Virus record (IMG/VR): IMGVR_UViG_2617271087_000004
DNA length: 64,000 nt
Origin: a virus
Lineage: Duplodnaviria; Heunggongvirae; Uroviricota; Caudoviricetes
Strand: one strand, 5' to 3'
Made by a program: the position numbers and the translations under genes. Positions 8,317 through 18,909 of this stretch are shown here, in pieces (the first letter of the stretch is position 1; each line of letters begins with the position of its first letter). Below the pieces are notes generated by a model that was not told where the DNA came from, did no database searches, and worked only from the letters and a program-made list of their open reading frames with translations.

Positions 8317-8537
8317 TATCGGTTAACCAGTTCCTTGTTGGTGGAGTCCAGGGTGTCAAACAGGGATGCAAATTCAGCATCCAGCGCCGCTTTTTTGTAG
8401 GCTTCGAAAGTAGCCTTGCTGACAATTACTGCTGGCTCACGGCCTCTGCGGGTGATTTCAACCTCTTCCCCGGCTTCAACATTGTTGAGCACTTCAGAAA
8501 GGTTGCCACGCGCGGTACGGAAGTTAATGGATTGCAT
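8316..8537 (-). CDS. phd: Phd antitoxin
   Basis: [16 protein letters not shown]... matches P1 Phd; track ORF begins two codons earlier. Confidence 0.95.
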
Positions 8538-8544
8538 AAACACC

Positions 8545-8600
8545 TCGTGTACTCGTTATGTGTACACAATTATAAACTTCACAGGCATAAAGCACCAGCA
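8545..8600 (-). promoter_or_regulatory. phd-doc promoter with palindromic Phd/Doc operator
   Basis: GTGTAC...GTACAC palindromes overlapping a TATAAT -10 and GAGGTG SD on the minus strand. Confidence 0.6.
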
Positions 8601-8609
8601 CTTTGCAGC

Positions 8610-8999
8610 TTAAATAACCGGACAATCATCAAATTCCCCACTTCGGGCATCATTGATGACATGAGTGATCACACCAAAAACAGCATTACTGCCCGTGTAT
8701 CCATCGTCATCTACTGGTAACGCCTCTTTCTTCCCGGTGCTTAAGTCCTCCAGGTGCTGGCGCGGATACTTCCTGTATCTCTTTATGCGATATTCACCCT
8801 CCATAGCGCACACAAGCAGAGAACCATCAACCGGAGTAAGCGAGGAATCAACCACCAGCAAAGCACCCTGCAATATTCCCTCACGGTGATGGCTATCAGC
8901 TGCCCGCATGAAGTAGGTCGCTGAAGGATGTCTAATTATCTGCTGATCAAGAGAAATTCGGCTTTCAACATAATCCGCCGCAGGAGAAGGGAAGCCCAT
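8610..8999 (-). CDS. humD: HumD, UmuD-like SOS mutagenesis protein
   Basis: 129-aa UmuD'-like translation; SOS box directly upstream. Confidence 0.9.
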   Translation of the reverse strand: MGFPSPAADYVESRISLDQQIIRHPSATYFMRAADSHHREGILQGALLVVDSSLTPVDGSLLVCAMEGEYRIKRYRKYPRQHLEDLSTGKKEALPVDDDGYTGSNAVFGVITHVINDARSGEFDDCPVI

Positions 9000-9017
9000 A
9001 GCGTTTTACCTCAATGA

Positions 9018-9037
9018 TACTGTTTATTCATACAGTA
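9018..9037. promoter_or_regulatory. LexA (SOS) box TACTGTTTATTCATACAGTA
   Basis: CTGT-N8-ACAG palindrome ~20 bp upstream of humD start. Confidence 0.75.
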
Positions 9038-9122
9038 TACATTGAAAAGGCATAGTTTGTGAAAGCGGGGTTTGTAGGCGCGCCACGCTGGGGGCTAATC
9101 ACATTTCTCCCCCATCTTGCCG

Positions 9123-9374
9123 TTATTTTTTTGGTGCATCCTCGTTCTGATACACCGGATCGCTCCCTTTTGGCAACTGGAGGCTTAACTGCCGGTAGTG
9201 CCGTAGCCGTTCCATGAAATAGGCGCGCAGGTTTTCCGGTTGCTCACGGGCCACCTGCTCTGCAATCACAGGTATATTCAGCCGTTCTTTGTAAGCAACG
9301 CCGCTGGCGGCAAGGTCTACGTTCACCTTGTCTCGCTCTTCCTGGCTTTTAGCTGCTATATTTCGATCTGACAC
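9123..9374 (-). CDS. hot: Hot, homologue of DNA polymerase III theta subunit
   Basis: 83-aa protein with [33 protein letters not shown] motif similar to HolE. Confidence 0.9.
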
Positions 9375-9406
9375 AAGAAACCTCCAGGAGTTAGTGGATC
9401 AGGCAC

Positions 9407-9757
9407 ATGCACAATAACGTTCTCAATGTTAGCCGTTCAATTCAGACAATCAGAGACTGCACCAGTGTGGTGGCATCAATCCCATTGCGAAACAGCATAG
9501 ACGAACTGCAAATTCGTGTATTGAATCCGAATCAGGCTAATAAGCAATTGCGCTTTATTTTGACGCTGAAAAGTGAAACAGAGGGGATAAAGCACAGCGT
9601 AAAAGTGTTTTCTGAGGCCATTCTGCTTAATGGGAAGCTCCGGCATCTGGTAAGGCCAGAACGTCAATATCCTGACGTCCTGGCGCGTGAAAAAGACCTT
9701 CTTTCTGAAGTTCAGGATAGGGTGATCGATTTCGTCAAATGCTATCCCCTGCATTGA
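9407..9757 (+). CDS. hypothetical protein, opposite-strand ORF embedded in a minus-strand gene block
   Basis: 116-aa ORF with balanced composition; weak RBS; competes with overlapping minus ORF 9476..9754. Confidence 0.3.
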   Translation: MHNNVLNVSRSIQTIRDCTSVVASIPLRNSIDELQIRVLNPNQANKQLRFILTLKSETEGIKHSVKVFSEAILLNGKLRHLVRPERQYPDVLAREKDLLSEVQDRVIDFVKCYPLH

Positions 9758-10026
9758 GGGCAGGTGTTCCCTTCCGCAAAGTAGGGAAAATTGCTATCAA
9801 GTTCATCACACCATCTGCGATGGTCGTAGCACCAAAACGCCTCCCACGGTGCACGGAAATACTTCATCCACCAGGACACTCGATCAGGTATATCTGCTGG
9901 TGGCAGTTCTTCTGGCAATAATTTGCCTGATAATTCCCTTTCCGCCCGCGACAGCATTTTTTTGAGGCTCGCGTTCTCTTTTTCAAGCTCATCTACGCGC
10001 ACCTGTAATTCAGCTTTCGTTGGCAT
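9742..10026 (-). CDS. hypothetical protein with C-terminal Cys motif (start moved to internal Met with GAGGTG SD)
   Basis: Track ORF 9742..10107 overlaps the upstream gene by ~100 nt; internal ATG has a strong SD. Confidence 0.4.
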   Translation of the reverse strand: MPTKAELQVRVDELEKENASLKKMLSRAERELSGKLLPEELPPADIPDRVSWWMKYFRAPWEAFWCYDHRRWCDELDSNFPYFAEGNTCPQCRG

Positions 10027-10660
10027 GGTCCACCTCATGCTTTTCAGCCACCAGCGGCAATAAAGCCCTGGCCATCTTATGAACCAATAGTGCATCAATA
10101 ATGCCAAGCGTATGCCCCGGCTTAATGTTTAATGCCGCCTCAAGGCGACACCTTTCCAGGCCACTTTTCTCGGCTTGTTTATGATGATCTGGTGTAATAA
10201 CGTCGCCCAAAACACGGCTAATTCTTTCTCGTAATTGCTGGGTGCCAGCACACTTGATCGCTGTATCGTGGAGACGGTTAACCAGTTCGCGATAAACATG
10301 CGGCTTAATGCGGATACGTTCACCGGTGACGCCCTTTTCTGGTGCTGGCACCGAACTATCCGGAATATCCGGATAGTTGCCAGCCTCGTAAGCTACCCGC
10401 AGCCAGTGCATGAATGTTTCAATGGACACACAACCACAGTCCACATCGATTTTCCCGCGTTGCTGTTCCAGCCAATGCTCAAAATTCAATCTACACGTAT
10501 TACTTTCATGTTGCTCTTTTTGTCTCAAGGCCAGCATCTGCTTGGCTATTTCCAATACTTCATCTGCCGTATATCCAGCACCGTGACCATACATTTCGAT
10601 ACGGGAAATAATCTCTGATATGCGCTCTTCAGTGATTCTGGTCATTTCTTTTTGCGCCAT
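10010..10660 (-). CDS. hypothetical protein
   Basis: 216-aa ORF in minus-strand operon; no recognisable family. Confidence 0.5.
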   Translation of the reverse strand: MAQKEMTRITEERISEIISRIEMYGHGAGYTADEVLEIAKQMLALRQKEQHESNTCRLNFEHWLEQQRGKIDVDCGCVSIETFMHWLRVAYEAGNYPDIPDSSVPAPEKGVTGERIRIKPHVYRELVNRLHDTAIKCAGTQQLRERISRVLGDVITPDHHKQAEKSGLERCRLEAALNIKPGHTLGIIDALLVHKMARALLPLVAEKHEVDHANES

Positions 10661-11016
10661 TTCTTTTCACATTCCTTAGTCCATTCTTCAATGTTCATTT
10701 TGGCAATATCAGTCATTCCATCACCTAAGAAATACTTTTTCCGGTATGTCTTGCACTTAACCCACACTACAACAGCCACCAGCCAGAAAATAAAAGGCCA
10801 TACAGCAATACCAACGACAGCCGCGATAAAGCCCAATAGCCATAAATGAAGCTCTCCAACTTCTGTTTGCGGCAATATTCTTAAAGAATTAAACAGCAGA
10901 CTGAAGGAATGGTCGTATGCATTGGCGGTATAAGACATGCAATCCATATAATTAAAGTCATAGCCTGAGGCTGCCGCCCATAATGGGCGGTCAAGAAAAT
11001 GTTTTAGTGTCATCAT
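10642..11016 (-). CDS. hypothetical membrane protein (one TM helix, basic C-terminus)
   Basis: 124-aa ORF with hydrophobic segment LWLLGFIAAVVGIAVWPFIFWLVAVVVWV. Confidence 0.5.
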   Translation of the reverse strand: MMTLKHFLDRPLWAAASGYDFNYMDCMSYTANAYDHSFSLLFNSLRILPQTEVGELHLWLLGFIAAVVGIAVWPFIFWLVAVVVWVKCKTYRKKYFLGDGMTDIAKMNIEEWTKECEKKWRKKK

Positions 11017-11022
11017 ATAAAT

Positions 11023-11316
11023 TTAAGGTTCAGACCAGTTATCTTCAATAGCAATGCTTAATCTTTGTAGCCATTCTGCTAATTTCAGCATTGCTTCTCT
11101 TTCGCTTAAACCACGAGGAAAATCATCAAGCGAAATTGTTGGCTTGAAGCCCCCGTAATTATCCATTTCAACAGTCAGATTTTGCTCCAGCACGGTATTC
11201 CTTACGCGGCTATTGTGCCGAAGCAAATATACTGAACGTGATTTATTGGTTTTATGGTCAAACTGATATTCGGTAAGTATCATCTGGCTTTTGCCATGAC
11301 TATTACCTCTCCACAT
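11023..11316 (-). CDS. hypothetical protein (start moved to internal Met with TGAGGT SD)
   Basis: Track ORF 11023..11412; internal ATG at ~11316 has a strong SD and follows the small peptide ORF. Confidence 0.4.
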   Translation of the reverse strand: MWRGNSHGKSQMILTEYQFDHKTNKSRSVYLLRHNSRVRNTVLEQNLTVEMDNYGGFKPTISLDDFPRGLSEREAMLKLAEWLQRLSIAIEDNWSEP

Positions 11317-11323
11317 ACTTACC

Positions 11324-11446
11324 TCACTTAATAAAACAACTCCATGCGTAGTTGATGATTTTTTCCCACGTAATATAAATCTGCACTCCGGCAGTAAAAC
11401 CAAAGCCAACAATTGCTGAAAAAATCAAAACATTTACTTTTGACAT
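11324..11446 (-). CDS. 40-aa hydrophobic small peptide (MSKVNVLIFSAIVGFGFTAGVQIYITWEKIINYAWSCFIK)
   Basis: Short ORF below the track size cut-off; single predicted TM segment. Confidence 0.35.
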   Translation of the reverse strand: MSKVNVLIFSAIVGFGFTAGVQIYITWEKIINYAWSCFIK

Positions 11447-11494
11447 TATAAATTTTCTCTCGGTGTCGTAGGTGATAGCACCATAATTGATAAT

Positions 11495-11746
11495 TTAGTG
11501 AGTTAGCAGTTCCATTTTTTGGATGATTTCCGCATGAGCATCATCGTTATCAACACTTAGCTCGTTTAATGCTTCTCGCACTACATCAACTTCTTCAGGC
11601 TGAAAGAAGTCGTCGCGGTAATCACCAAATAGAACCGAAACCAGCCTGCCACCAGCAACATCAAGATTGGCGCTAACAGGTGGCTCTTTGCCATCCTCAA
11701 ATTCGACTACAAAAGTTAATTTTCCCATCGTTACCACCAGCGACAA
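11495..11746 (-). CDS. hypothetical acidic small protein
   Basis: 83-aa ORF. Confidence 0.45.
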   Translation of the reverse strand: MSLVVTMGKLTFVVEFEDGKEPPVSANLDVAGGRLVSVLFGDYRDDFFQPEEVDVVREALNELSVDNDDAHAEIIQKMELLTH

Positions 11747-11810
11747 ATTGAATACAAACCCAGTGCTGCCGCCATCACAATTCCTACCGTTGCGAATGCT
11801 TCAGGCCAGC

Positions 11811-12440
11811 TCATTGATTCACCTCCTGCGGCGGTTCTGGTAGCGGCATCCAGTGTGACGGTTTCCACGACGCACCAGGAATTATCCACCCATCATTAGC
11901 GTCAGGATGCCCCGGGATGTAAGTAGCCCATTTCATTCGCCAGTCACCTTTCCTGTCAAACTCCACGGCAACAAGAACGGCTGTTTTGGTATTCGGCATT
12001 CGCTCACTACAGCTTATCCAACCATCCGGAGTTACCGGAACTTGCGGAATGGCTGTCTGCTCTCGAACGTCATTAGGCGCTATAGGTTCTGCTGCCAACT
12101 GACTGGCATATTTGTTAATGGTAACGATTAGCTCTTGCTCGACCTCATCCAGACAATCACCGATACCTCGCCTGTCACCGTCAAAATCATCGAAATCGGC
12201 ACGAATCTTGGCAACCTCCCGGATTGCGGACAACACCTCACTAGGAATTACCGGATAGTTGGTTGACGTTTCCGCGATTTCCCGAAAATTATTGGTTGAC
12301 GAATTCTTGTTTTCCCGAAAGTTTCCGGACTGAAGCATGGCGGCGCGGCAGGCGTTCCAGCCATCTGCGTAACAATCTCTGTGTGTCTTGAAATATGTCA
12401 CCGCCCTTGGTACATCGTTTACGTCTATTTCATCCGGCAC
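11811..12440 (-). CDS. hypothetical protein with DUF551-like C-terminal domain
   Basis: C-terminus WISCSERMP...VLVAVE...SHWMPLPEPP resembles the phage DUF551 family. Confidence 0.5.
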   Translation of the reverse strand: MPDEIDVNDVPRAVTYFKTHRDCYADGWNACRAAMLQSGNFRENKNSSTNNFREIAETSTNYPVIPSEVLSAIREVAKIRADFDDFDGDRRGIGDCLDEVEQELIVTINKYASQLAAEPIAPNDVREQTAIPQVPVTPDGWISCSERMPNTKTAVLVAVEFDRKGDWRMKWATYIPGHPDANDGWIIPGASWKPSHWMPLPEPPQEVNQ

Positions 12441-12505
12441 AACCGGCGCAGGTGAGTCAGCATAAACAGGAATAACGTCCGGTTGCTCTTTATTGCTTTC
12501 ATCCG

Positions 12506-12694
12506 TTAAAGCCCAGAATAATTTCCCGGCCGGATGTTTGAAAAATAAGCAACTGGCTCTGCTTCCAGCGATGCCAGTGCAATTCGTGCCAGTTCTTCCG
12601 CTTCTTCTGCTGGCAGTACAACGTTGCTATCAGGTCCGTATGTTTCGCGCCACTGCTTGATTGTCAGCAGTCGCTCTTTGGTAATAGTGATCAT
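12506..12694 (-). CDS. hypothetical small protein
   Basis: 62-aa ORF with ATGA-type overlap to the upstream gene. Confidence 0.35.
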   Translation of the reverse strand: MITITKERLLTIKQWRETYGPDSNVVLPAEEAEELARIALASLEAEPVAYFSNIRPGNYSGL

Positions 12695-13278
12695 GCCGCG
12701 TTTCCTTCTTTCTTATTAACAATTACACCGTCATATATTTCATTAAGGTGCCCTCTCAACTCCATGCGCCTTAATGCAGATAACATGTAATCGCATTCAA
12801 CCTGCTTATTTCCAGTAAATGGCTTATCGTCAGGATTACCCCAACAGCAATTACCCTTGGGCCACCCATGTACTTTCCGTACTCTTCCGTTAACAACGTG
12901 AAGTAATCCCCAGCCAGGTGGTAAATCCTCAATTGAAATAATTCCCGGCTCACTAATAAAGAATCGCCAGTCGCCCATGCCAAGTGAGGGATTTTTACGG
13001 AAACGCTTTTTTCTATCTGCCAACAAGTCAGCACGAGAACACTTCGCCTCTATCAGGCATGATGCTGAATTTCTGAACCCCATAGCATCTGGCTGTTCTC
13101 CGGTACTGGTTACAGCTATAAAGCGGTCATGAAAACAAACCTTGAACCCGTTGCGCTTAAGGAACTTGTACGCAATTTGACAGAGTTCGCGGTGTGTTAA
13201 CGCCATATCACTCTCCTTTAGTGCGCAAATGGTTTTTCCAGCGGTTTTGCGCCGCGCTGGGCTTTTTGCAAAAACCAC
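12691..13278 (-). CDS. hypothetical protein, possible PD-(D/E)xK-type nuclease (start may be the internal Met MALTHREL)
   Basis: D...EAK motif (PDAMGF...CLIEAKCS) suggestive of a restriction-endonuclease-like fold. Confidence 0.4.
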   Translation of the reverse strand: MVFAKSPARRKTAGKTICALKESDMALTHRELCQIAYKFLKRNGFKVCFHDRFIAVTSTGEQPDAMGFRNSASCLIEAKCSRADLLADRKKRFRKNPSLGMGDWRFFISEPGIISIEDLPPGWGLLHVVNGRVRKVHGWPKGNCCWGNPDDKPFTGNKQVECDYMLSALRRMELRGHLNEIYDGVIVNKKEGNAA

Positions 13279-13396
13279 AATCCATCATCCCGTAATATTT
13301 CATCAACCCCATCCGTCGGTTGCTGAGTCTCACCCACTGCCAGACGCCAGGAGCGTTTCTACGAACTAACAGAATCTTTGCTTTACGGTTTTTCAT
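13208..13396 (-). CDS. small basic protein (MKNRKAK... N-terminus)
   Basis: 62-aa Arg/Lys-rich ORF; start overlaps the stop of the upstream paralogous small ORF (ATGA). Confidence 0.35.
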   Translation of the reverse strand: MKNRKAKILLVRRNAPGVWQWVRLSNRRMGLMKYYGMMDCGFCKKPSAAQNRWKNHLRTKGE

Positions 13397-13569
13397 CTTA
13401 CTGCGTACCCTTTCTTCCGCCTGTTCTGTGACGCAGTAGGCTTACGCTTTGCGGCAAAAGCCACCTGACCAAATGGATGGAGTACCGCTATCTTATGGTT
13501 GCTAATAACCAGCTCCACCACACGCACAGGCCGCTGTAAAAAAAGTCGTTTTGCCTTACGGTTTTTCAT
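13393..13569 (-). CDS. small basic protein, 57 aa (MKNRKAK... N-terminus), translationally coupled to the next ORF
   Basis: ORF below track cut-off with AGGAG SD; shares start-region DNA repeat with ORF 13208..13396. Confidence 0.35.
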   Translation of the reverse strand: MKNRKAKRLFLQRPVRVVELVISNHKIAVLHPFGQVAFAAKRKPTASQNRRKKGYAVR

Positions 13570-13741
13570 CGCTTTGCTCTCCTGCGTCTCTTTGCTGCTC
13601 GTCGTGCCGCTGCAATACCGGTATGGCGGCGCTTTGGTGCCGGGATGATGTTGTCAGCCATCAGGACATGTGGCTTTGCAATTAGCGCAGAAGCCCAAAA
13701 ACGAGTCGGGTACGGTAACAAGCTGATACATACCACACGCA

Positions 13742-14560
13742 CTACTCACCTCCGTTGATACGGATGCCAGCGGCGCGGATTGCAGCGATGACCTCAGAAA
13801 CTTTGTATGCCATTACCGTTTGGTAATCATCGTGAAAATCTGTTCGATGAAGCATGCTGCTACGTTCCGGGAGCGATATTTCCCGAGCATCCAGTTCCTT
13901 AACGCGTTCCTCCAGTTCGTAGACCCTGCATTGTTCTCTATCATCAATCAGATATAACCCAAGACATTCGCTTTCTACCCAACCGCCAAAATCATGATCG
14001 TAACGCTCACATGAAAACTCACCGTCACCGTCCTTTGTTGGAATGGTGTAACTATCTAATGGGCCACCATATGTCGGCACATTTCCCAATGTTGGATGCT
14101 CAATCCACATGAAAAATGCACGTCCGGTTATTGGGCAAATATCTGGCCGCCATTGGTTACGAACAGCCTTGGTTTCGGATAATTCTTCAGCGTGTTGTTT
14201 TACTTCCTCAAGCTCAACTCTCAGCTTCCCTACCGTTAGCGCAATCTCCTCGTTCTCCTGGTCGCGGCGTTTGATGTATTGCTGGTTTCTTTCCAGCTCA
14301 TCCAGCAGCGCCAAGACGGTAGCGGGATTGGCTGCGGCGATGAATTCAGCATTGGCCTGCTGTTCCATTTGGAAATCTTCATCGAAACCGCTTTCTGGAT
14401 GCGCTCCTTCAATTCTGCAAATAGGAATATATCCAGCAACTTCACGATGAATTAGCGCATCATCACCATCAAATCGGCTCTCTCCATATTCGAGCGACCA
14501 CTCACCACACGTTGCTTTTTCTGCCTTAGCACGCAGTGCCTGATAGTCAATCTTGCTCAC
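13742..14560 (-). CDS. Ea22-like protein
   Basis: N-terminal IDYQALR...NPATVLALLDELE motif typical of lambdoid Ea22-family proteins. Confidence 0.55.
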   Translation of the reverse strand: MSKIDYQALRAKAEKATCGEWSLEYGESRFDGDDALIHREVAGYIPICRIEGAHPESGFDEDFQMEQQANAEFIAAANPATVLALLDELERNQQYIKRRDQENEEIALTVGKLRVELEEVKQHAEELSETKAVRNQWRPDICPITGRAFFMWIEHPTLGNVPTYGGPLDSYTIPTKDGDGEFSCERYDHDFGGWVESECLGLYLIDDREQCRVYELEERVKELDAREISLPERSSMLHRTDFHDDYQTVMAYKVSEVIAAIRAAGIRINGGE

Positions 14561-15114
14561 TGGTTGCCTCCTTTGCGAAGCTGGGCAGCAAAGTCAACTA
14601 ACCACTCAGTCATTTCAACCTTCCCTACCAGGTCTGAACCAGGGTGCATACAGCAATCACTCTGCGCCGCTTTGAAATCCTTATACTCATATTCTTGGGC
14701 CACCAGATTTTTTGCAGCTTCTATAGCAGCATCCACCCCCTGCGCCCGCACTTCAGACAGGAAAGCATCGGTAGCTGGAGTTTCGCTGTGGTGTAGGGCA
14801 TCGTTGATAATCATTGCAGCAACACCAGCCTGCCCTGCATCCGTGACCGACACATGCTCAAGAGTTACGGCCATTGCGTGTTTCAGTCCGGCGTTCTCTG
14901 CCACCAGCGCCGCGAGATTAGTCTCAAGCTCTGCAATACGGCACATAGCATCAATATTTGTGTCTTCCAGCCGCTTAATTTCATCCAGTAGTGCCAGTGC
15001 CACCGATGGCGTGAACGCCATACGAAACGCCACAAAATTTTGATGCATAGGTTCTGTTTCTACTGCAACTGCCGCATCTCGCAGTGCCTGATAGTCAATT
15101 GTCATTCTCGCCAT
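14557..15114 (-). CDS. Ea22-like protein, paralogue of the downstream gene
   Basis: Shares IDYQALR...ALALLDE N-terminal motif with ORF 13742..14560. Confidence 0.55.
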   Translation of the reverse strand: MARMTIDYQALRDAAVAVETEPMHQNFVAFRMAFTPSVALALLDEIKRLEDTNIDAMCRIAELETNLAALVAENAGLKHAMAVTLEHVSVTDAGQAGVAAMIINDALHHSETPATDAFLSEVRAQGVDAAIEAAKNLVAQEYEYKDFKAAQSDCCMHPGSDLVGKVEMTEWLVDFAAQLRKGGNQ

Positions 15115-15746
15115 CCTTCACAGTTGTAATCACTACAGCCTTCAAAATCATATGGGCTGTACTGCCAGGTTATTTTTCCGCAATGCGGACAATTCCAACG
15201 CACCTTCCCGCTTCGCGACTTCTTTCTTCTGTTCTGCTCTTTCAACCAGTCAGGCATGACCAAACCTGCGCCCTGAACCATTGTTCTGCGGCTAAAGTTA
15301 TTGATATTGAACGTCCGACGCTTTGCTGCATCAGCAATGGAAAATGGCAACCAAACTATTCCTGGTTCGTTTTTGTTGGCGACGCTAAAGATGGTCGCTT
15401 TACTGAAGTCATCTGTTGGCAATCCACCGTGTTGAAGCCAGTAAACATCGTTGCCGTTCCAGCTACCTTTTTTGTAGGCCACATACGCAGTGCAATCTGA
15501 CTCAATCAGGCTTTCTGTGGGGATGTACTGGCAATCAACGTGCCACACAGCCATTGCATCCACGCTATCAGCGCAAACAGGCTGATCGATATCTCGCCCA
15601 CAATTCCAGGCTTTTTGGGCTTCTTCCAGCGTGTAAACATGAGCGCGATCGATATCAGAACTGTAACCATTGCCGTTATGGCAATGGAATGAGGCGTTAT
15701 TACCCACAGTTTCACGCAAGCACATCATGTAAAAGCGGTTATTCAC
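15102..15746 (-). CDS. hypothetical protein with C-terminal CPHCG...C...C zinc-ribbon-like motif
   Basis: 214-aa ORF. Confidence 0.5.
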   Translation of the reverse strand: MNNRFYMMCLRETVGNNASFHCHNGNGYSSDIDRAHVYTLEEAQKAWNCGRDIDQPVCADSVDAMAVWHVDCQYIPTESLIESDCTAYVAYKKGSWNGNDVYWLQHGGLPTDDFSKATIFSVANKNEPGIVWLPFSIADAAKRRTFNINNFSRRTMVQGAGLVMPDWLKEQNRRKKSRSGKVRWNCPHCGKITWQYSPYDFEGCSDYNCEGWRE

Positions 15747-16023
15747 TGGTTGCCTCCGCTTCCCACGTTTTCAGACTTTCACCACAGAACGGGCAAAATG
15801 AAACTCGAATAGGCGATTTAGAAAATTCACCAGACCGCAGCATGATCAGGTCTTGTGAATGAATTAATTCATGGTTATAGATTTTGTATTTCAGCAGACC
15901 TTTTCGCGTCGTGTATTCAGCGTCATGCTCCAGGGATTGTGCCAACGCCGCGCACGGCTCTATCTTGTTGCCATTAATTTGGCATTTTGACTCACTCACT
16001 GGTTGCCCCCTGAATACGCTCAA
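15739..16023 (-). CDS. hypothetical protein with CPFCG motif
   Basis: 94-aa ORF overlapping its neighbours by a few nt. Confidence 0.4.
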   Translation of the reverse strand: MSVFRGQPVSESKCQINGNKIEPCAALAQSLEHDAEYTTRKGLLKYKIYNHELIHSQDLIMLRSGEFSKSPIRVSFCPFCGESLKTWEAEATSE

Positions 16024-16573
16024 ACTCTATTACCCACACCCAAGGATTAGCGTTCCAACTATCTTCGCCATAAATTGATTTCCATAGGCTACGGAAACCT
16101 GGGTAATGCTTATCGCCAATGAGGGTCGATTCTGTTGGTGCGCCCTCAGCCCTTGCATCACATTCGCTGATATCGTTCAACCGCTCAACGCGCACGTTGG
16201 TAATTTCCAGAAGAATGCGCGATGCCCAGCGCGGCATGTGAATTGATGGCGTCCACTTTTCTGATACTGGTTTATTACAAACCTCGACCGGAACCCGGTG
16301 CGTTTGTTCTGTCCAGGAGTTACGCACGCTTGCGCGATAAACCAGCGTTGCGACGTCCGTCGCTTTGCCATGTACCCGGTAGGTTTCGCGAACCCAAATA
16401 CGATCGCCCGGTTGACCATATGGACAATGCTTAGCAAGCAACTCTGCGGCCACTGCCCGTCCATAGAATTTTTCTTCAACAATCCTGCGAGTCTGTGTTT
16501 TATTCCCGCCAAGAATTACCCGGACCATCTCATCGTTGAAAATCATGCCGCGCTCTTTCACTTCGCCTTTCAT
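15992..16573 (-). CDS. hypothetical phage protein, possibly ASCH-like
   Basis: 193-aa ORF; family assignment from motif memory only. Confidence 0.45.
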   Translation of the reverse strand: MKGEVKERGMIFNDEMVRVILGGNKTQTRRIVEEKFYGRAVAAELLAKHCPYGQPGDRIWVRETYRVHGKATDVATLVYRASVRNSWTEQTHRVPVEVCNKPVSEKWTPSIHMPRWASRILLEITNVRVERLNDISECDARAEGAPTESTLIGDKHYPGFRSLWKSIYGEDSWNANPWVWVIEFERIQGATSE

Positions 16574-16582
16574 GCATCCCCC

Positions 16583-16669
16583 TTACCCATGTGCGACGAT
16601 GCCGCCAAAAGTGATAGAGAACAGCCAGAAATAGATCGCGGCCATAATGATTTTGAATGCCGTGTTCAT
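16583..16669 (-). CDS. 28-aa hydrophobic peptide (MNTAFKIIMAAIYFWLFSITFGGIVAHG), first ORF of a C1-operator-controlled operon
   Basis: AGGAG SD 8 nt upstream of ATG; ORF below the track size cut-off. Confidence 0.4.
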   Translation of the reverse strand: MNTAFKIIMAAIYFWLFSITFGGIVAHG

Positions 16670-16751
16670 ATTTTCAGCTCCTGTGATTGATTGGATACAT
16701 GCCGCGCCTTGCGGCATGTTTTTATTTTCACTTTCTCCGTTTTAAAAATCA

Positions 16752-16768
16752 AGATTTATTAGAGCAAT
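16752..16768 (-). promoter_or_regulatory. C1 operator
   Basis: agatttattagagcaat, 16/17 to consensus; upstream of the minus-strand operon starting at ~16669. Confidence 0.6.
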
Positions 16769-17274
16769 CATTGTTGATGAAGAAGCGCATTTTCATACTC
16801 CCTGACCATTAACGTAAGCACGCCGTGCCTCCTGAAAACACGCGCCACTTCAATCTTATCTTCCAGCGCGAACGCGATTTTACTTAGACCAATTTTCTTA
16901 AGGAGATCAATCTTTGCTGGGCCGTCATTTCTGTCATCGGTGGCAGGACGCATAGATAGCAAAGGCTCAGCCCCGTTTGTTACGTACTTCCGCAGCCAGG
17001 CTCGTGTTTTATCCCTTGCGATCTCACAGCGCCCGGTTACAAACCAGACCGTGTAAACGTTAAATAACTGGCGCACCATATCAATAACTGAAGTGATGGG
17101 AGTATCGGTGTCACAGGCGAGATTAAACTCGTTCCAGTCCTTTGTTAATGCACCTTTACCTGGTGGCGGAAGCAAATGCAGTCTGTCTTCAGTTGCCTCT
17201 GATATTGTTCCATCAATATCAACTATGACGATATACGGACGTTCCTGGTGTGCGTGTTTATTGAAAATACTCAA
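16768..17274 (-). CDS. HAD-superfamily phosphatase-like protein (candidate P1 Pap)
   Basis: DIDGT motif near the N-terminus. Confidence 0.55.
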   Translation of the reverse strand: MSIFNKHAHQERPYIVIVDIDGTISEATEDRLHLLPPPGKGALTKDWNEFNLACDTDTPITSVIDMVRQLFNVYTVWFVTGRCEIARDKTRAWLRKYVTNGAEPLLSMRPATDDRNDGPAKIDLLKKIGLSKIAFALEDKIEVARVFRRHGVLTLMVREYENALLHQQ

Positions 17275-17346
17275 ATGCCCTCCTCATTGGACGAAAAAAA
17301 TGCTGGTGGGCGCACTCCACCAGCATTAAAAGTGACACTGTAACTG

Positions 17347-18609
17347 TCAGCGAACGTAAATAGTGCCGCCGTTCTCTTTTTCCCATGCATCGCTACGTGC
17401 ATAGCAAACATCGAGAAGTCTTCTTGCCGCTGTTTCCTCTAAACCCAATTCGACAACCAACTGCTCATGACGGCGGGTAACCACATCAAACAGGGTATGC
17501 AGCCCTTTAGCTGCCAGATCATCAATAAATTCCGGTTCGAACGGCAGCTCTGCATCTGCCAACATAACCTCTTGCGCCCACTCGACACGGCGGACCAGTT
17601 CCGGGCGGCGGCTTTCCATCTCTTTACAGATCAATTCATGGAAGAACTCTACCCAACCTTCCGGCTGGAACTCGCGGAAAATGGCCAGCGGCTGGAAGTT
17701 TGGCATCAACCATTCGTTGATTCGGATATCAATGGCATAGCCCATGTCGCAGCAGAACTGATAAGCAAAGTCCAGCTTAGAAACGATATAAGGACGCTCG
17801 TTATTGAACTCTTTAGGCGATGAGATCCCATAAGCCAGGAGGCGCGGGAAGAAGGAGATTTGCCCTAACGTCGGATGAAGTTTGCTTGCAGGGAAACGGC
17901 GCTCAGTAATGCCATACATTTCCTTCTTGAGCGTCGCAAATTTGGCATTCTCATTAACCAGCGCGGTAACCTCTGCTTTTTTATTAGCAAATGCCACGCG
18001 CGCCTCGCTTGCATCTTTAATAGTTTTTTTGAGCTGTTGGTTAAGGTCGGCGACCTGCTTACGCAGTTCCTGTCGCTCGCTTTTAGCTTTGTTATAGCGT
18101 TTCTCAAGGTTAAAAGGATCAAGTTTCATGATCTCTTTATATTGAGATTTTAGCGTTGAAATCTGTGAGTTCCGCAGTTCAACCATCGCGGTCATTTCAT
18201 TGAGTTTTGTTTCCAGCTCAATGCTTATACGTTCGGCATTATCAGCACGCTGGTTGGCGTCATGCGTCGCATCGTCGATCGCGTCCTGTTGCTGGCGTTT
18301 CAAATGTTCAATTTGTAGCTGAAGCTCTTCAATTTCTTTACCCTTCAGACCGAGATCCAACTGCATATTTTCAGCTGCATCTACCAGGGAGTTATGGCTA
18401 TCAGCTTCTGCGTTATAAACATCAATAAGCTGTGCGTGAAGCATCTCCGCTGACTGAACCGCATTATCAAAAAAACGCGCTGTGAGGTCATCACAACTAA
18501 CGCGGCGTTGCGCGGCCCGGATGTTCTGGATAATGGCCGGGATACCGGCATTCAGGACGTCAGGGATAGATACATTTTCGATTGATTGGTTTTGTGCTGA
18601 AGTGATCAT
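17347..18609 (-). CDS. hypothetical protein with long N-terminal coiled coil and globular C-terminal domain
   Basis: 420-aa ORF; heptad-rich Q/E/K/L N-terminal half. Confidence 0.6.
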   Translation of the reverse strand: MITSAQNQSIENVSIPDVLNAGIPAIIQNIRAAQRRVSCDDLTARFFDNAVQSAEMLHAQLIDVYNAEADSHNSLVDAAENMQLDLGLKGKEIEELQLQIEHLKRQQQDAIDDATHDANQRADNAERISIELETKLNEMTAMVELRNSQISTLKSQYKEIMKLDPFNLEKRYNKAKSERQELRKQVADLNQQLKKTIKDASEARVAFANKKAEVTALVNENAKFATLKKEMYGITERRFPASKLHPTLGQISFFPRLLAYGISSPKEFNNERPYIVSKLDFAYQFCCDMGYAIDIRINEWLMPNFQPLAIFREFQPEGWVEFFHELICKEMESRRPELVRRVEWAQEVMLADAELPFEPEFIDDLAAKGLHTLFDVVTRRHEQLVVELGLEETAARRLLDVCYARSDAWEKENGGTIYVR

Positions 18610-18843: not shown

Positions 18844-18909
18844 ATTGCTCTAATAAAAAACGTGATGAGTGTACATCACGTTTTAAAAATATGGAATTAT
18901 TAGAGCAAT
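18844..18909. promoter_or_regulatory. pair of inverted C1 operator sites flanking a ~30-bp spacer
   Basis: attgctctaataaaaaa (18844-18860) and ggaattattagagcaat (18893-18909). Confidence 0.6.

Follow-up and report, generated by a model that had tools for sequence, protein, structure and literature searches.

What purpose is served by a dense run of about 20 small genes wedged into the backbone of a tailed-phage genome? The 64,000-nucleotide (nt) stretch analysed here (IMG/VR virus record IMGVR_UViG_2617271087_000004, Caudoviricetes; hereafter the window) carries such a run, ~7 kb long, at positions 9407-16669, between the genes hot and pap. A first-pass annotation had described it as an accessory block of lambdoid-type genes in which anti-defence or exclusion functions might sit. 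Our analysis confirms the observation with small corrections and partly supports its interpretation. We conclude that the block is probably this element's version of the variable pap-hot slot of the P1 family, that is, a C1-controlled mosaic accessory operon encoding presumably dispensable early products that are under purifying selection and whose functions cannot be assigned singly. The caution voiced at the outset, that nothing in the block could be assigned from sequence alone, was right.

We identified the element through its relatives. The best megablast matches of 9407-16669 are P1-family phage-plasmids; the top phage matches are Salmonella phage SJ46, P7 and RCS47, and the Escherichia coli plasmid pEC190329_2 shows 99.9% identity across 97% of the query. 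Coverage of the block is 54% for P7 and below 80% for every phage record, while 10 plasmid records reach 80% or more, the best of them at 99.9% identity. Open reading frames (ORFs) and annotated homologues place the block between pap and hot/humD on a Punavirus backbone, in the flanking order known from P1 and P7 (lpa, pdcB, doc, phd, humD, hot / block / pap, pmgS). Its position would thereby equal that of pmgT-upfO in P1 and of the P7 counterpart that the annotators of that phage name the 'hea operon', under the operator Op(hea). The borders are those originally proposed, a LexA box before humD together with hot on one side and a C1 operator on the other:

9020-9035, no strand assigned: LexA box (CTGT-N8-ACAG) upstream of humD, in the left flank outside the block; exact match, tactgtatgaataaacagta.
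9123-9374, minus strand: hot, DNA polymerase III theta homologue and left border gene, named 'DNA polymerase III subunit theta' by RefSeq in the near-identical plasmid.
16697-16719, plus strand: strong terminator-like hairpin (stem of 10 bp, then a T run) that faces pap and is located between the operator and g20.
16752-16768, minus strand: predicted C1 repressor operator (OpmgT/Op88 of P1, Op(hea) of P7), ATTGCTCTAATAAATCT, with one mismatch to the consensus.

A promoter-like site adjoins the LexA box, which is annotated here in the P7 and P1 records too, and hot has a ratio of nonsynonymous to synonymous substitution rates (dN/dS) of 0.08. At the other border, the stop codon of pap overlaps with the C1 operator, within which lies TTGCTC, the -35 hexamer of the operon promoter; a C1 operator is also annotated at this position in the records of P7 and P1. 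With the 17-nt operator consensus and up to three mismatches, we found 15 matches in the window against 0.33 expected, which is consistent with the dispersed P1 immunity regulon. The sites include an overlapping pair (32938-32954, plus strand, and 32949-32965, minus strand) and a divergent pair near 18844-18909. An Rfam search of 8500-17500 returned just two chance-level matches, mir-67 and GcvB, both rejected as lying far below the gathering scores. The border gene pap (16768-17274, minus strand) is labelled 'acid phosphatase' in P1 and '3'-phosphatase' or '3'-phosphatase, 5'-polynucleotide kinase' in newer records. The start of its product, IVIVDIDGT, resembles a HAD-type phosphatase motif, and Pap might serve RNA/DNA end repair instead of a metabolic role.

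The content of the slot is highly variable. We fetched 80 related loci from IMG/VR with Pap as the anchor, 39 of which contain a complete interval with both borders present, and measured the interval from pap to hot or, where hot is absent, from pap to humD. It ranges from 2.3 to 9.2 kb, with 36 different gene orders among the 39 complete loci, and each of the window's variable genes is present in 5 to 36 of the 80 loci. Gene-for-gene conservation with morphogenetic functions is clearly not what the family displays, and the accessory nature claimed for the block is borne out. The P1 genes pmgT, pmgU, pmgV, upfN, upfO and hot (pmgT to humD) were non-essential in a CRISPR interference screen (PMC10695390), and a deletion survey, known to us through its citation in that paper, likewise found pmgT-upfO non-essential.

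In 17 of the 80 loci, the block is replaced by a complete type I restriction-modification system, encoded on the opposite strand and convergent with pap. These hsd loci follow directly after the g20 gene (listed below) and the hairpin. Their genes match REase_I (E=0), MTase_I and Specificity_I in PADLOC and EcoR124_C in Pfam. In the relatives L016 and L065, the hairpin corresponding to 16697-16719 lies just downstream of hsdR in the convergent hsd operon, and it may be placed to stop the hsd transcript, thereby insulating pap from antisense transcription. Other cargo of the slot in relatives comprises an orphan type II methyltransferase, a PAPS-reductase-like gene, an invasin-type inverse autotransporter, insertion sequence (IS) elements, DUF4752 and DUF1382. 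The autotransporter, found in the pap-proximal slot of L060 (11204-14839) and of L053, is a 1,211-aa protein of the invasin/intimin type (IAT_beta, Big_1, Invasin_D3) and is virulence-type cargo on a P1-like element. The same hotspot elsewhere in the family holds an IS605-family TnpB (L064, 17680-18861), which matches PADLOC Cas12f models, and IS903 in P7 (L001, 3732-4788). L013 has, a few kb downstream of pap, a lambda-type tyrosine integrase gene (15431-16504; Phage_integrase, Arm DNA-binding domain), and this locus could be a P1-lambdoid hybrid or an assembly chimera.

Neither the variability nor the link with hsd is new. The hotspot has been described as RD-5 between pap and lxr (Venturini et al. 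2019, PMC6906374) and as 'region 8' (PMC9603915), so the comparison of gene content across the P1 family that the first-pass annotation proposed has a published precedent. The P1 record notes that the pap-downstream and phd-doc flanks are homologous to DNA beside the EcoDXXI and R124/3 hsd loci (see also Tyndall et al. 1997, which appears as reference 364 in the reference list of PMC12707154). The present region is one more combination in this hotspot, with a near-identical copy in a sequenced plasmid.

The block itself is a real run of tightly packed genes. We counted 21 candidate ORFs, 19 of which match PHROG families (E about 1e-23 to 1e-124, all labelled 'unknown function'), and RefSeq coding sequences (CDSs) lie at the same places in the 99.9% identical plasmid. 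On the minus strand, genes overlap by 1 to 79 nt at 11 of the 19 junctions, and most of the others are gaps of 10 nt or less. Coding density is near 100%, with coupled start/stop junctions kept. The genes had all been placed on the minus strand, which holds for 19 of them, whereas the first, at 9407-9757, is on the plus strand. Starts shorter than the longest ORFs were taken for g02, g05, g08, g11 and g18. In the list, J1 (GGAGGCAACCnGTGA) and J2 (CTAAAGGAGAGTGATATG) are short junction sequences, and pI is the isoelectric point:

9407-9757, plus strand: g01, 116 aa, basic, the sole plus-strand gene of the block; phrog_2594 at 1e-46, RefSeq CDS WP_000551789.1.
9742-10026, minus strand: g02, 94 aa, with a coiled-coil N-terminus and a C-terminal Cys motif (CPQC); phrog_3797 at 3e-59.
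10010-10660, minus strand: g03, 216 aa, modular; phrog_21459 at 8e-84 and phrog_60.
10642-11016, minus strand: g04, 124-aa membrane protein whose hydrophobic segment has a mean Kyte-Doolittle value of 2.6; phrog_2638 at 1.5e-62.
11023-11316, minus strand: g05, 97 aa; phrog_1258 at 3e-49, match from residue 33 of the long ORF.
11324-11446, minus strand: g06, 40-aa hydrophobic peptide; phrog_5525 at 1e-24.
11495-11728, minus strand: g07, 77 aa, strongly acidic (net charge -12, pI 4.2); phrog_3876 at 8e-53.
11731-11814, minus strand: g08, ORF for a probable 27-aa hydrophobic peptide, its start read from the sequence and uncertain; without PHROG match.
11811-12694, minus strand: EaA-like gene with a terminal DUF551 domain, split into g10 (12506-12694, 62 aa) and g09 (11811-12440, 209 aa).
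12691-13206, minus strand: g11, 171 aa, basic, start ATG at 13206, preceded by J2; putative PD-(D/E)xK (MmcB/DUF1052-like) domain; phrog_9263 and phrog_631.
13208-13569, minus strand: g12 (62 aa) and g13 (58 aa), very basic, pI 11-12; phrog_1380 at 1e-40 and 6.5e-23.
13566-13742, minus strand: g14, 58 aa, with an arginine-rich C-terminus; phrog_13831 at 5e-40.
13742-14560, minus strand: g15, acidic 272-aa Ead/Ea22 protein with an unrelated C-terminal domain; PF13935 at 2e-30 over residues 2-130.
14557-15114, minus strand: g16, acidic 185-aa Ead/Ea22 protein; PF13935 at 1e-9, breakpoints at 14754 and 14781.
15102-15746, minus strand: g17, 214 aa, with 10 Cys and a C-terminal zinc-ribbon-like motif, homologue of P7 Upf87.6, preceded by J1; phrog_2457 at 8e-119.
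15739-15999, minus strand: g18, ~86 aa, with a Cys motif, homologue of P7 Upf87.4; phrog_4030 at 5e-44 from residue 9.
15992-16573, minus strand: g19, 193 aa, homologue of the N-terminal part of P1 PmgT, with a putative ASCH-like (PUA-like) fold.
16583-16669, minus strand: g20, hydrophobic peptide of 28 aa, the gene following immediately on the C1-controlled promoter and having a good ribosome-binding site; conserved backbone.

Among the block products, only DUF551 (PF04448; 76.4 bits against a cut-off of 22) and two Ead_Ea22 domains (PF13935; 106.6 and 39.4 bits against a cut-off of 27 each) exceed the Pfam cut-offs. An NCBIfam scan of the products gave nothing informative, and PDB sequence searches with g19, g11, g17, g15, g16, g09 and the g19 family profile gave nothing meaningful. 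The Cys-motif and membrane proteins reported at first pass are present: CxxC-type motifs occur in g02, g12, g17 and g18, and strongly hydrophobic segments in g04, g06, g08 and g20.

That the block draws on lambdoid early regions, as had been claimed, is evident at the DNA level. A segment of ~4 kb from g09 to g17 (11818-15757) is 97% identical by megablast to phages that convert their hosts to Shiga toxin (Stx) 2c production. The Stx-type phage Ss-VASD has its DUF551, g11-like and Ea22 genes in the exo-xis region, flanked by int/xis and exo/RecT; in Phi24B this region is dispensable and promotes lytic development (PMC10789677). J1, a ribosome-binding site with a GTG start and an overlapping stop, occurs exactly at three junctions of the window (ahead of g15, g17 and g18), all within the block, against 0.13 occurrences expected in 64 kb. 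In 54 related loci we counted 118 copies, none of them outside the variable interval, and they precede at least seven unrelated protein families; the motif is found also in P7 and Ss-VASD. Upstream genes read J1 in two different frames, indicating conservation at the DNA level. J2, which precedes g11 here, has 56 occurrences before eight families in the related loci.

We defined breakpoints as the points where high-identity alignment of the window with any of the 80 loci stops. Of 54 breakpoint clusters, 19 lie within 30 nt of a gene junction, about twofold more than the 17% expected (binomial P=9e-4). Most other recurrent breakpoints fall inside g03, g09, g15 and g16, the modular Ea22/EaA-type proteins, where we take them to mark domain borders. 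From these alignments we infer, without claiming proof, that recombination at micro-homologies moves single genes or domains, which fits lambdoid mosaicism. A bolder proposal, which we regard as speculative and rather unlikely, is that the pap-hot slot acts as an integrase-free cassette exchanger, in which junctions of 15-18 nt (J1, J2 and the ATGA after DUF551) both couple translation and act as preferred crossover points. P1-type phage-plasmids and lambdoid/Stx phages would thereby trade genes and domains, including new counter-defence effectors such as a nuclease-like domain free as g11 or carried on Ea22 scaffolds, and an ASCH-like PmgT family acting on modified nucleic acids.

Most block genes appear to be under selection. 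Their pairwise dN/dS is 0.05-0.35, including the very small g07, g12, g13 and g20, compared with 0.09-0.10 for pap and pmgS in the backbone; for g06 and g14, few comparisons put it at about 0.5. On the reading we favour, the block would be a single leftward operon whose C1 operator, at the pap end, overlaps the promoter. Judging from the homology of this site with those of P1 and P7, it would be silent in the plasmid prophage and transcribed without active C1, that is, upon infection or induction. The operon would be made of ~20 cassettes, each a single gene or a single domain, linked through overlapping stop and start codons, with short junctions that supply a ribosome-binding site and a start codon, so that the same junction may front unrelated genes in different elements. 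Homologous recombination at micro-homologies, a mechanism suggested by the observed pattern, would reshuffle the cassettes within the P1 family and with the lambdoid/Stx exo-xis region. Early in lytic growth, the products most likely tune host physiology or replication and the choice between lysis and lysogeny, perhaps host defences as well, in keeping with reports on homologous exo-xis genes. They would fall into nucleic-acid-directed domains (the ASCH-like g19, the PD-(D/E)xK-like g11 and the zinc-ribbon proteins), presumed acidic oligomeric Ea22/EaA scaffolds with swappable C-terminal domains (g15, g16, g09), three tiny, very basic proteins (g12-g14, pI 11-12) and four putative small membrane peptides (g04, g06, g08, g20). 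Further classes are the small, very acidic g07 and the Cys-rich g17, g18 and g02.

The first sizeable gene of the operon, g19, is the most widespread of the variable genes. Its family is very large (44,099 cluster representatives at E<=1e-3) and has strongly conserved motifs (GxKTQTRR, PGDRLWVRE, PSIHMPRWASR). The protein itself has no Pfam match even at E<=10 and does not reach the gathering score of ASCH (PF04266), and 19 of 44 diverse relatives match ASCH weakly (best E=2.4e-4). An initial homologue search gave only proteins more than 80% identical, and the alignment was built by profile query. An AlphaFold model computed from 74 sequences has a mean predicted local distance difference test score (pLDDT) of 65.5, and the solved E. 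coli ac4C amidohydrolase YqfB is among the hits, at sub-threshold scores. Each of these lines is weak and remote, but they agree, and we accept the ASCH-like call made at first pass as a prediction. The ORF cluster of g19 includes a 309-aa form, the length of P1 PmgT. Relatives carry the UniRef label 'Morphogenetic protein'. The RefSeq label 'DNA primase' for a homologue has no supporting match, and we judge it unsupported.

The nuclease call for g11 stands in part. Residues D40, E53, K55, D60, D64 and K67 do not vary among 39 homologues (58-88% identity), but the best match of the family profile in the PDB, 3dnx_A, which we take to represent DUF1052/MmcB, reaches only E=0.15; it aligns over D...ExK-SRxD-xAD-K. 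The protein has no Pfam match. The quality of its single-sequence AlphaFold model (pLDDT 45) does not allow fold comparison. The family is small (324 matches, enterobacterial prophage proteins), the gene has a dN/dS of 0.09, and in some Salmonella proteins the domain is fused behind an Ead_Ea22 N-terminus. We regard g11 as carrying a probable, not demonstrated, 'PD-(D/E)xK-like' nuclease domain, as judged from its sequence.

The predicted DUF551-like protein was verified in Pfam (E=3e-21), and its gene turned out to be the 3' part of an EaA-like gene that is split in the window by a 1-nt deletion near 12544 (TTATATTTTC to TTATTTTTC, 12540-12548). Residues 1-51 and 51-221 of P7 Upf89.5 align to the window in two different frames. 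Every related locus that can be aligned at this point (21 in all, the 99.9% identical plasmid among them) has the missing base. The deletion is either a private mutation or a sequencing error. A prophage gene set that includes the gene of another DUF551 protein, YfdS, inhibits the initiation of replication when over-expressed (PMC4776307). Of the two Ea22-like genes described as paralogues, both belong to the family, but they share only family motifs (IDYQALR, LALLDE) and are not recent duplicates. An exact J1 lies ahead of g15 at 14556-14572, and this gene has an intragenic breakpoint at 14313. Ea22 is pro-lysogenic and has a conserved N-terminus and coiled coil followed by variable, interchangeable C-terminal domains (PMC10834534).

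The remaining genes are described here in the order of the list. The plus-strand g01 is present in 9 of the 80 loci, and a minus-strand ORF antisense to it (9476-9754) was rejected as a gene, having no family match. The phrog_3797 match of g02 begins at residue 28 of its long ORF, and its Pfam matches are weak, bZIP-like coiled-coil ones only. In g03, ~140 aa of the C-terminal part are near-identical to part of the C-terminal half of P7 Upf89.5, and homology breaks at 10509 and 10552. The genes g04 (34 of 80 loci, dN/dS 0.21) and g05 (36 of 80 loci, dN/dS 0.18) are widespread. A dN/dS of 0.51 makes the evidence for selection on g06 weaker, and g07 has 0.05. The g08 ATG overlaps the DUF551 stop codon (ATGA). 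The neighbours g12 and g13 are paralogous (37% identity, E=5e-10; dN/dS 0.19 and 0.08); a reading of g12 and g11 as one frameshifted gene was rejected, the separate state being commoner (29 loci) and the fused form the exception. With g14 they form three successive ~60-aa genes (13208-13742, minus strand) whose products have a pI of 11.3-12 and a net charge of +14 to +15. The arginine-rich end of g14 recalls RNA-binding arginine-rich motifs; this gene occurs in 6 of the 80 loci and its dN/dS of 0.54 comes from two pairs only.

Towards the pap end, g17 has a dN/dS of 0.18 across 24 alleles and only sub-threshold zinc-finger matches in Pfam; the note 'putative tyrosine phosphatase' on its P7 homologue has no supporting match and was judged unsupported. 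The true start of g18 is probably the GTG at 15999, behind the J1 at 15995-16011. The short gene g20 is part of the backbone, being present in 77 of 80 P1-family loci with a dN/dS of 0.13, and the variable part begins right after it, with breakpoints at 16520 and 16581. It is unannotated in the P1, P7 and RefSeq plasmid records that we inspected.

Several observations weigh against our account of the block. The frameshift in the EaA/DUF551 gene raises the possibility that some of the block is in decay. Breakpoints of homology often lie within genes, away from the junctions, and the junction motifs could be kept merely as good translation-initiation signals or have been inherited with neighbouring sequence. 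The ASCH and PD-(D/E)xK assignments have sub-threshold scores. A single operon is proposed because the genes share one orientation and strong internal terminators are lacking, and on that basis only, while the P1 record has predicted internal promoters and a late promoter before hot. The roles proposed above are borrowed from distant homologues, not from these proteins, and they would hold by analogy.

Of the other explanations, the one we consider possible, if doubtful, is that the block is mainly a counter-defence island, with a product or products such as g19, g11, g07 or the Ea22 scaffolds neutralising host immunity early in infection. Non-essential, hypervariable and horizontally exchanged genes under early-operon-like control are the typical signature of phage accessory regions (for the concept, see bioRxiv 10.1101/2023.04.06.535777), and DNA methyltransferases and PAPS-reductase-like genes occur in the same slot or in the homologous exo-xis region. 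Small size and strong negative charge are a feature of DNA mimics, and g07 is small with a net charge of -12; as for g19, with YqfB among the hits, paper titles place ASCH among the PUA-like domains linked to modified nucleic acids. However, we found no homology to a characterised anti-defence protein in the libraries scanned, none of which was made of anti-defence models, and a text look-up of six block-protein N-termini did not find them in the supplements of a screen of 200 accessory genes (PMC12373910). For the homologues studied experimentally (Ea22, the exo-xis region and the YfdS cluster), the phenotypes concern lysis-lysogeny, host expression or replication and not anti-defence. It is improbable that the block instead guards the lysogen as a defence or superinfection-exclusion locus, in the same role as the type I restriction-modification system of relatives. 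The presence of that complete system in 17 of 80 loci and the flank homology to EcoDXXI and R124/3 recorded for P1 speak for such a role; four small membrane proteins could act at the cell envelope, and g01, on the opposite strand, could escape C1 control. Yet 19 of the 20 genes are co-oriented behind a C1-repressed promoter and are predicted to be silent in the prophage, which disfavours exclusion by the lysogen. PADLOC-DB 2.0 gave no match at E<=0.01 for any of the 20 block products, while the hsd genes of relatives, as a positive control, matched strongly. Moreover, the hsd genes replace the block and do not accompany its genes, and they lie on the opposite, convergent strand, indicating that the two kinds of cargo are regulated differently. 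The only firm link of this slot with defence is one of location, through the hsd and orphan methyltransferase genes of relatives.

Two further explanations carry little weight. Decay of the block into hitch-hiking DNA largely without current function is very improbable: the private frameshift in the EaA/DUF551 gene, the two small ORFs with dN/dS ~0.5 on few comparisons and the IS elements in the slot of relatives would fit it, but the low dN/dS of most genes, very small ones included, and the near-complete coding density with preserved start/stop coupling would not. Morphogenetic roles have next to no likelihood and are already contradicted. They are suggested only by old or automatic labels, namely 'putative morphogenetic function' for P1 pmgT, pmgU and pmgV, the UniRef name of the g19 relatives and 'minor tail protein' for P7 upf89.0. 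Against these labels, the content is absent or different in most relatives, with intervals down to 2.3 kb, the P1 counterparts are non-essential, the homologues lie in the lambdoid early-left region and not among structural genes, and Pfam and PHROG scans of the block products matched no structural-protein family.

The mosaic accessory operon that we prefer concerns elements of practical importance. Phage-plasmids of the P1 type, which are common in E. coli and Salmonella, spread resistance genes, and the pap-hot slot is among the few places where they accept foreign DNA. Here the slot draws on the gene pool of Shiga-toxin phages; a restriction-modification system is its alternative content in relatives. 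What the analysis adds are the junction motifs, the ASCH-like assignment of the PmgT family and the nuclease-like domain of g11 that is also found on Ea22 scaffolds. It leaves knowledge of this kind of region unchanged, and yields a testable idea on how such regions are shuffled and a short, ranked list of candidates for functional screens: g19, g11, g07, g12-g14, the Ea22 pair and the membrane peptides.

How does the block compare with known systems? The type IC hsd loci flanked by P1-like DNA (EcoR124, EcoDXXI, EcoprrI) occupy the same slot in relatives, but they are a bona fide defence system on the opposite strand that replaces the block, and the window contains no hsd genes. By analogy only, the block resembles the cassette arrays of integrons, with one promoter, exchangeable promoter-less cassettes arranged head to tail and a short conserved border sequence. 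In contrast to integrons, its junctions are 15-18-nt overlaps of ribosome site and start/stop codons, and many exchanges are intragenic; no integrase family was matched by the block products, and a repeat search gave short junction repeats only, not attC-like imperfect palindromes. With the exo-xis (early-left, ea) region of lambdoid, Stx and P22 phages, the block has in common the Ead/Ea22 and DUF551 families, g11-like genes, J1 and the tight head-to-tail packing; we did not identify in it orf60a, orf61, orf63 or ea8.5, the characterised genes of lambda. The lambdoid early-left operon is under PL/N control, whereas the block sits in a P1 backbone under C1 and not between exo and xis. The pap-hot region of P1 and P7 has the same backbone position, orientation and C1 operator at the pap end. 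It differs in its gene combination, as lambdoid cassettes here replace pmgU, pmgV and upfM-upfO of P1, and lxr and the IS903 of P7 are absent from the block. The genes next to the operator are again shared: g19, g18 and g17 correspond to Upf86.8, Upf87.4 and Upf87.6 of P7, and g19 to the N-terminal part of P1 PmgT.

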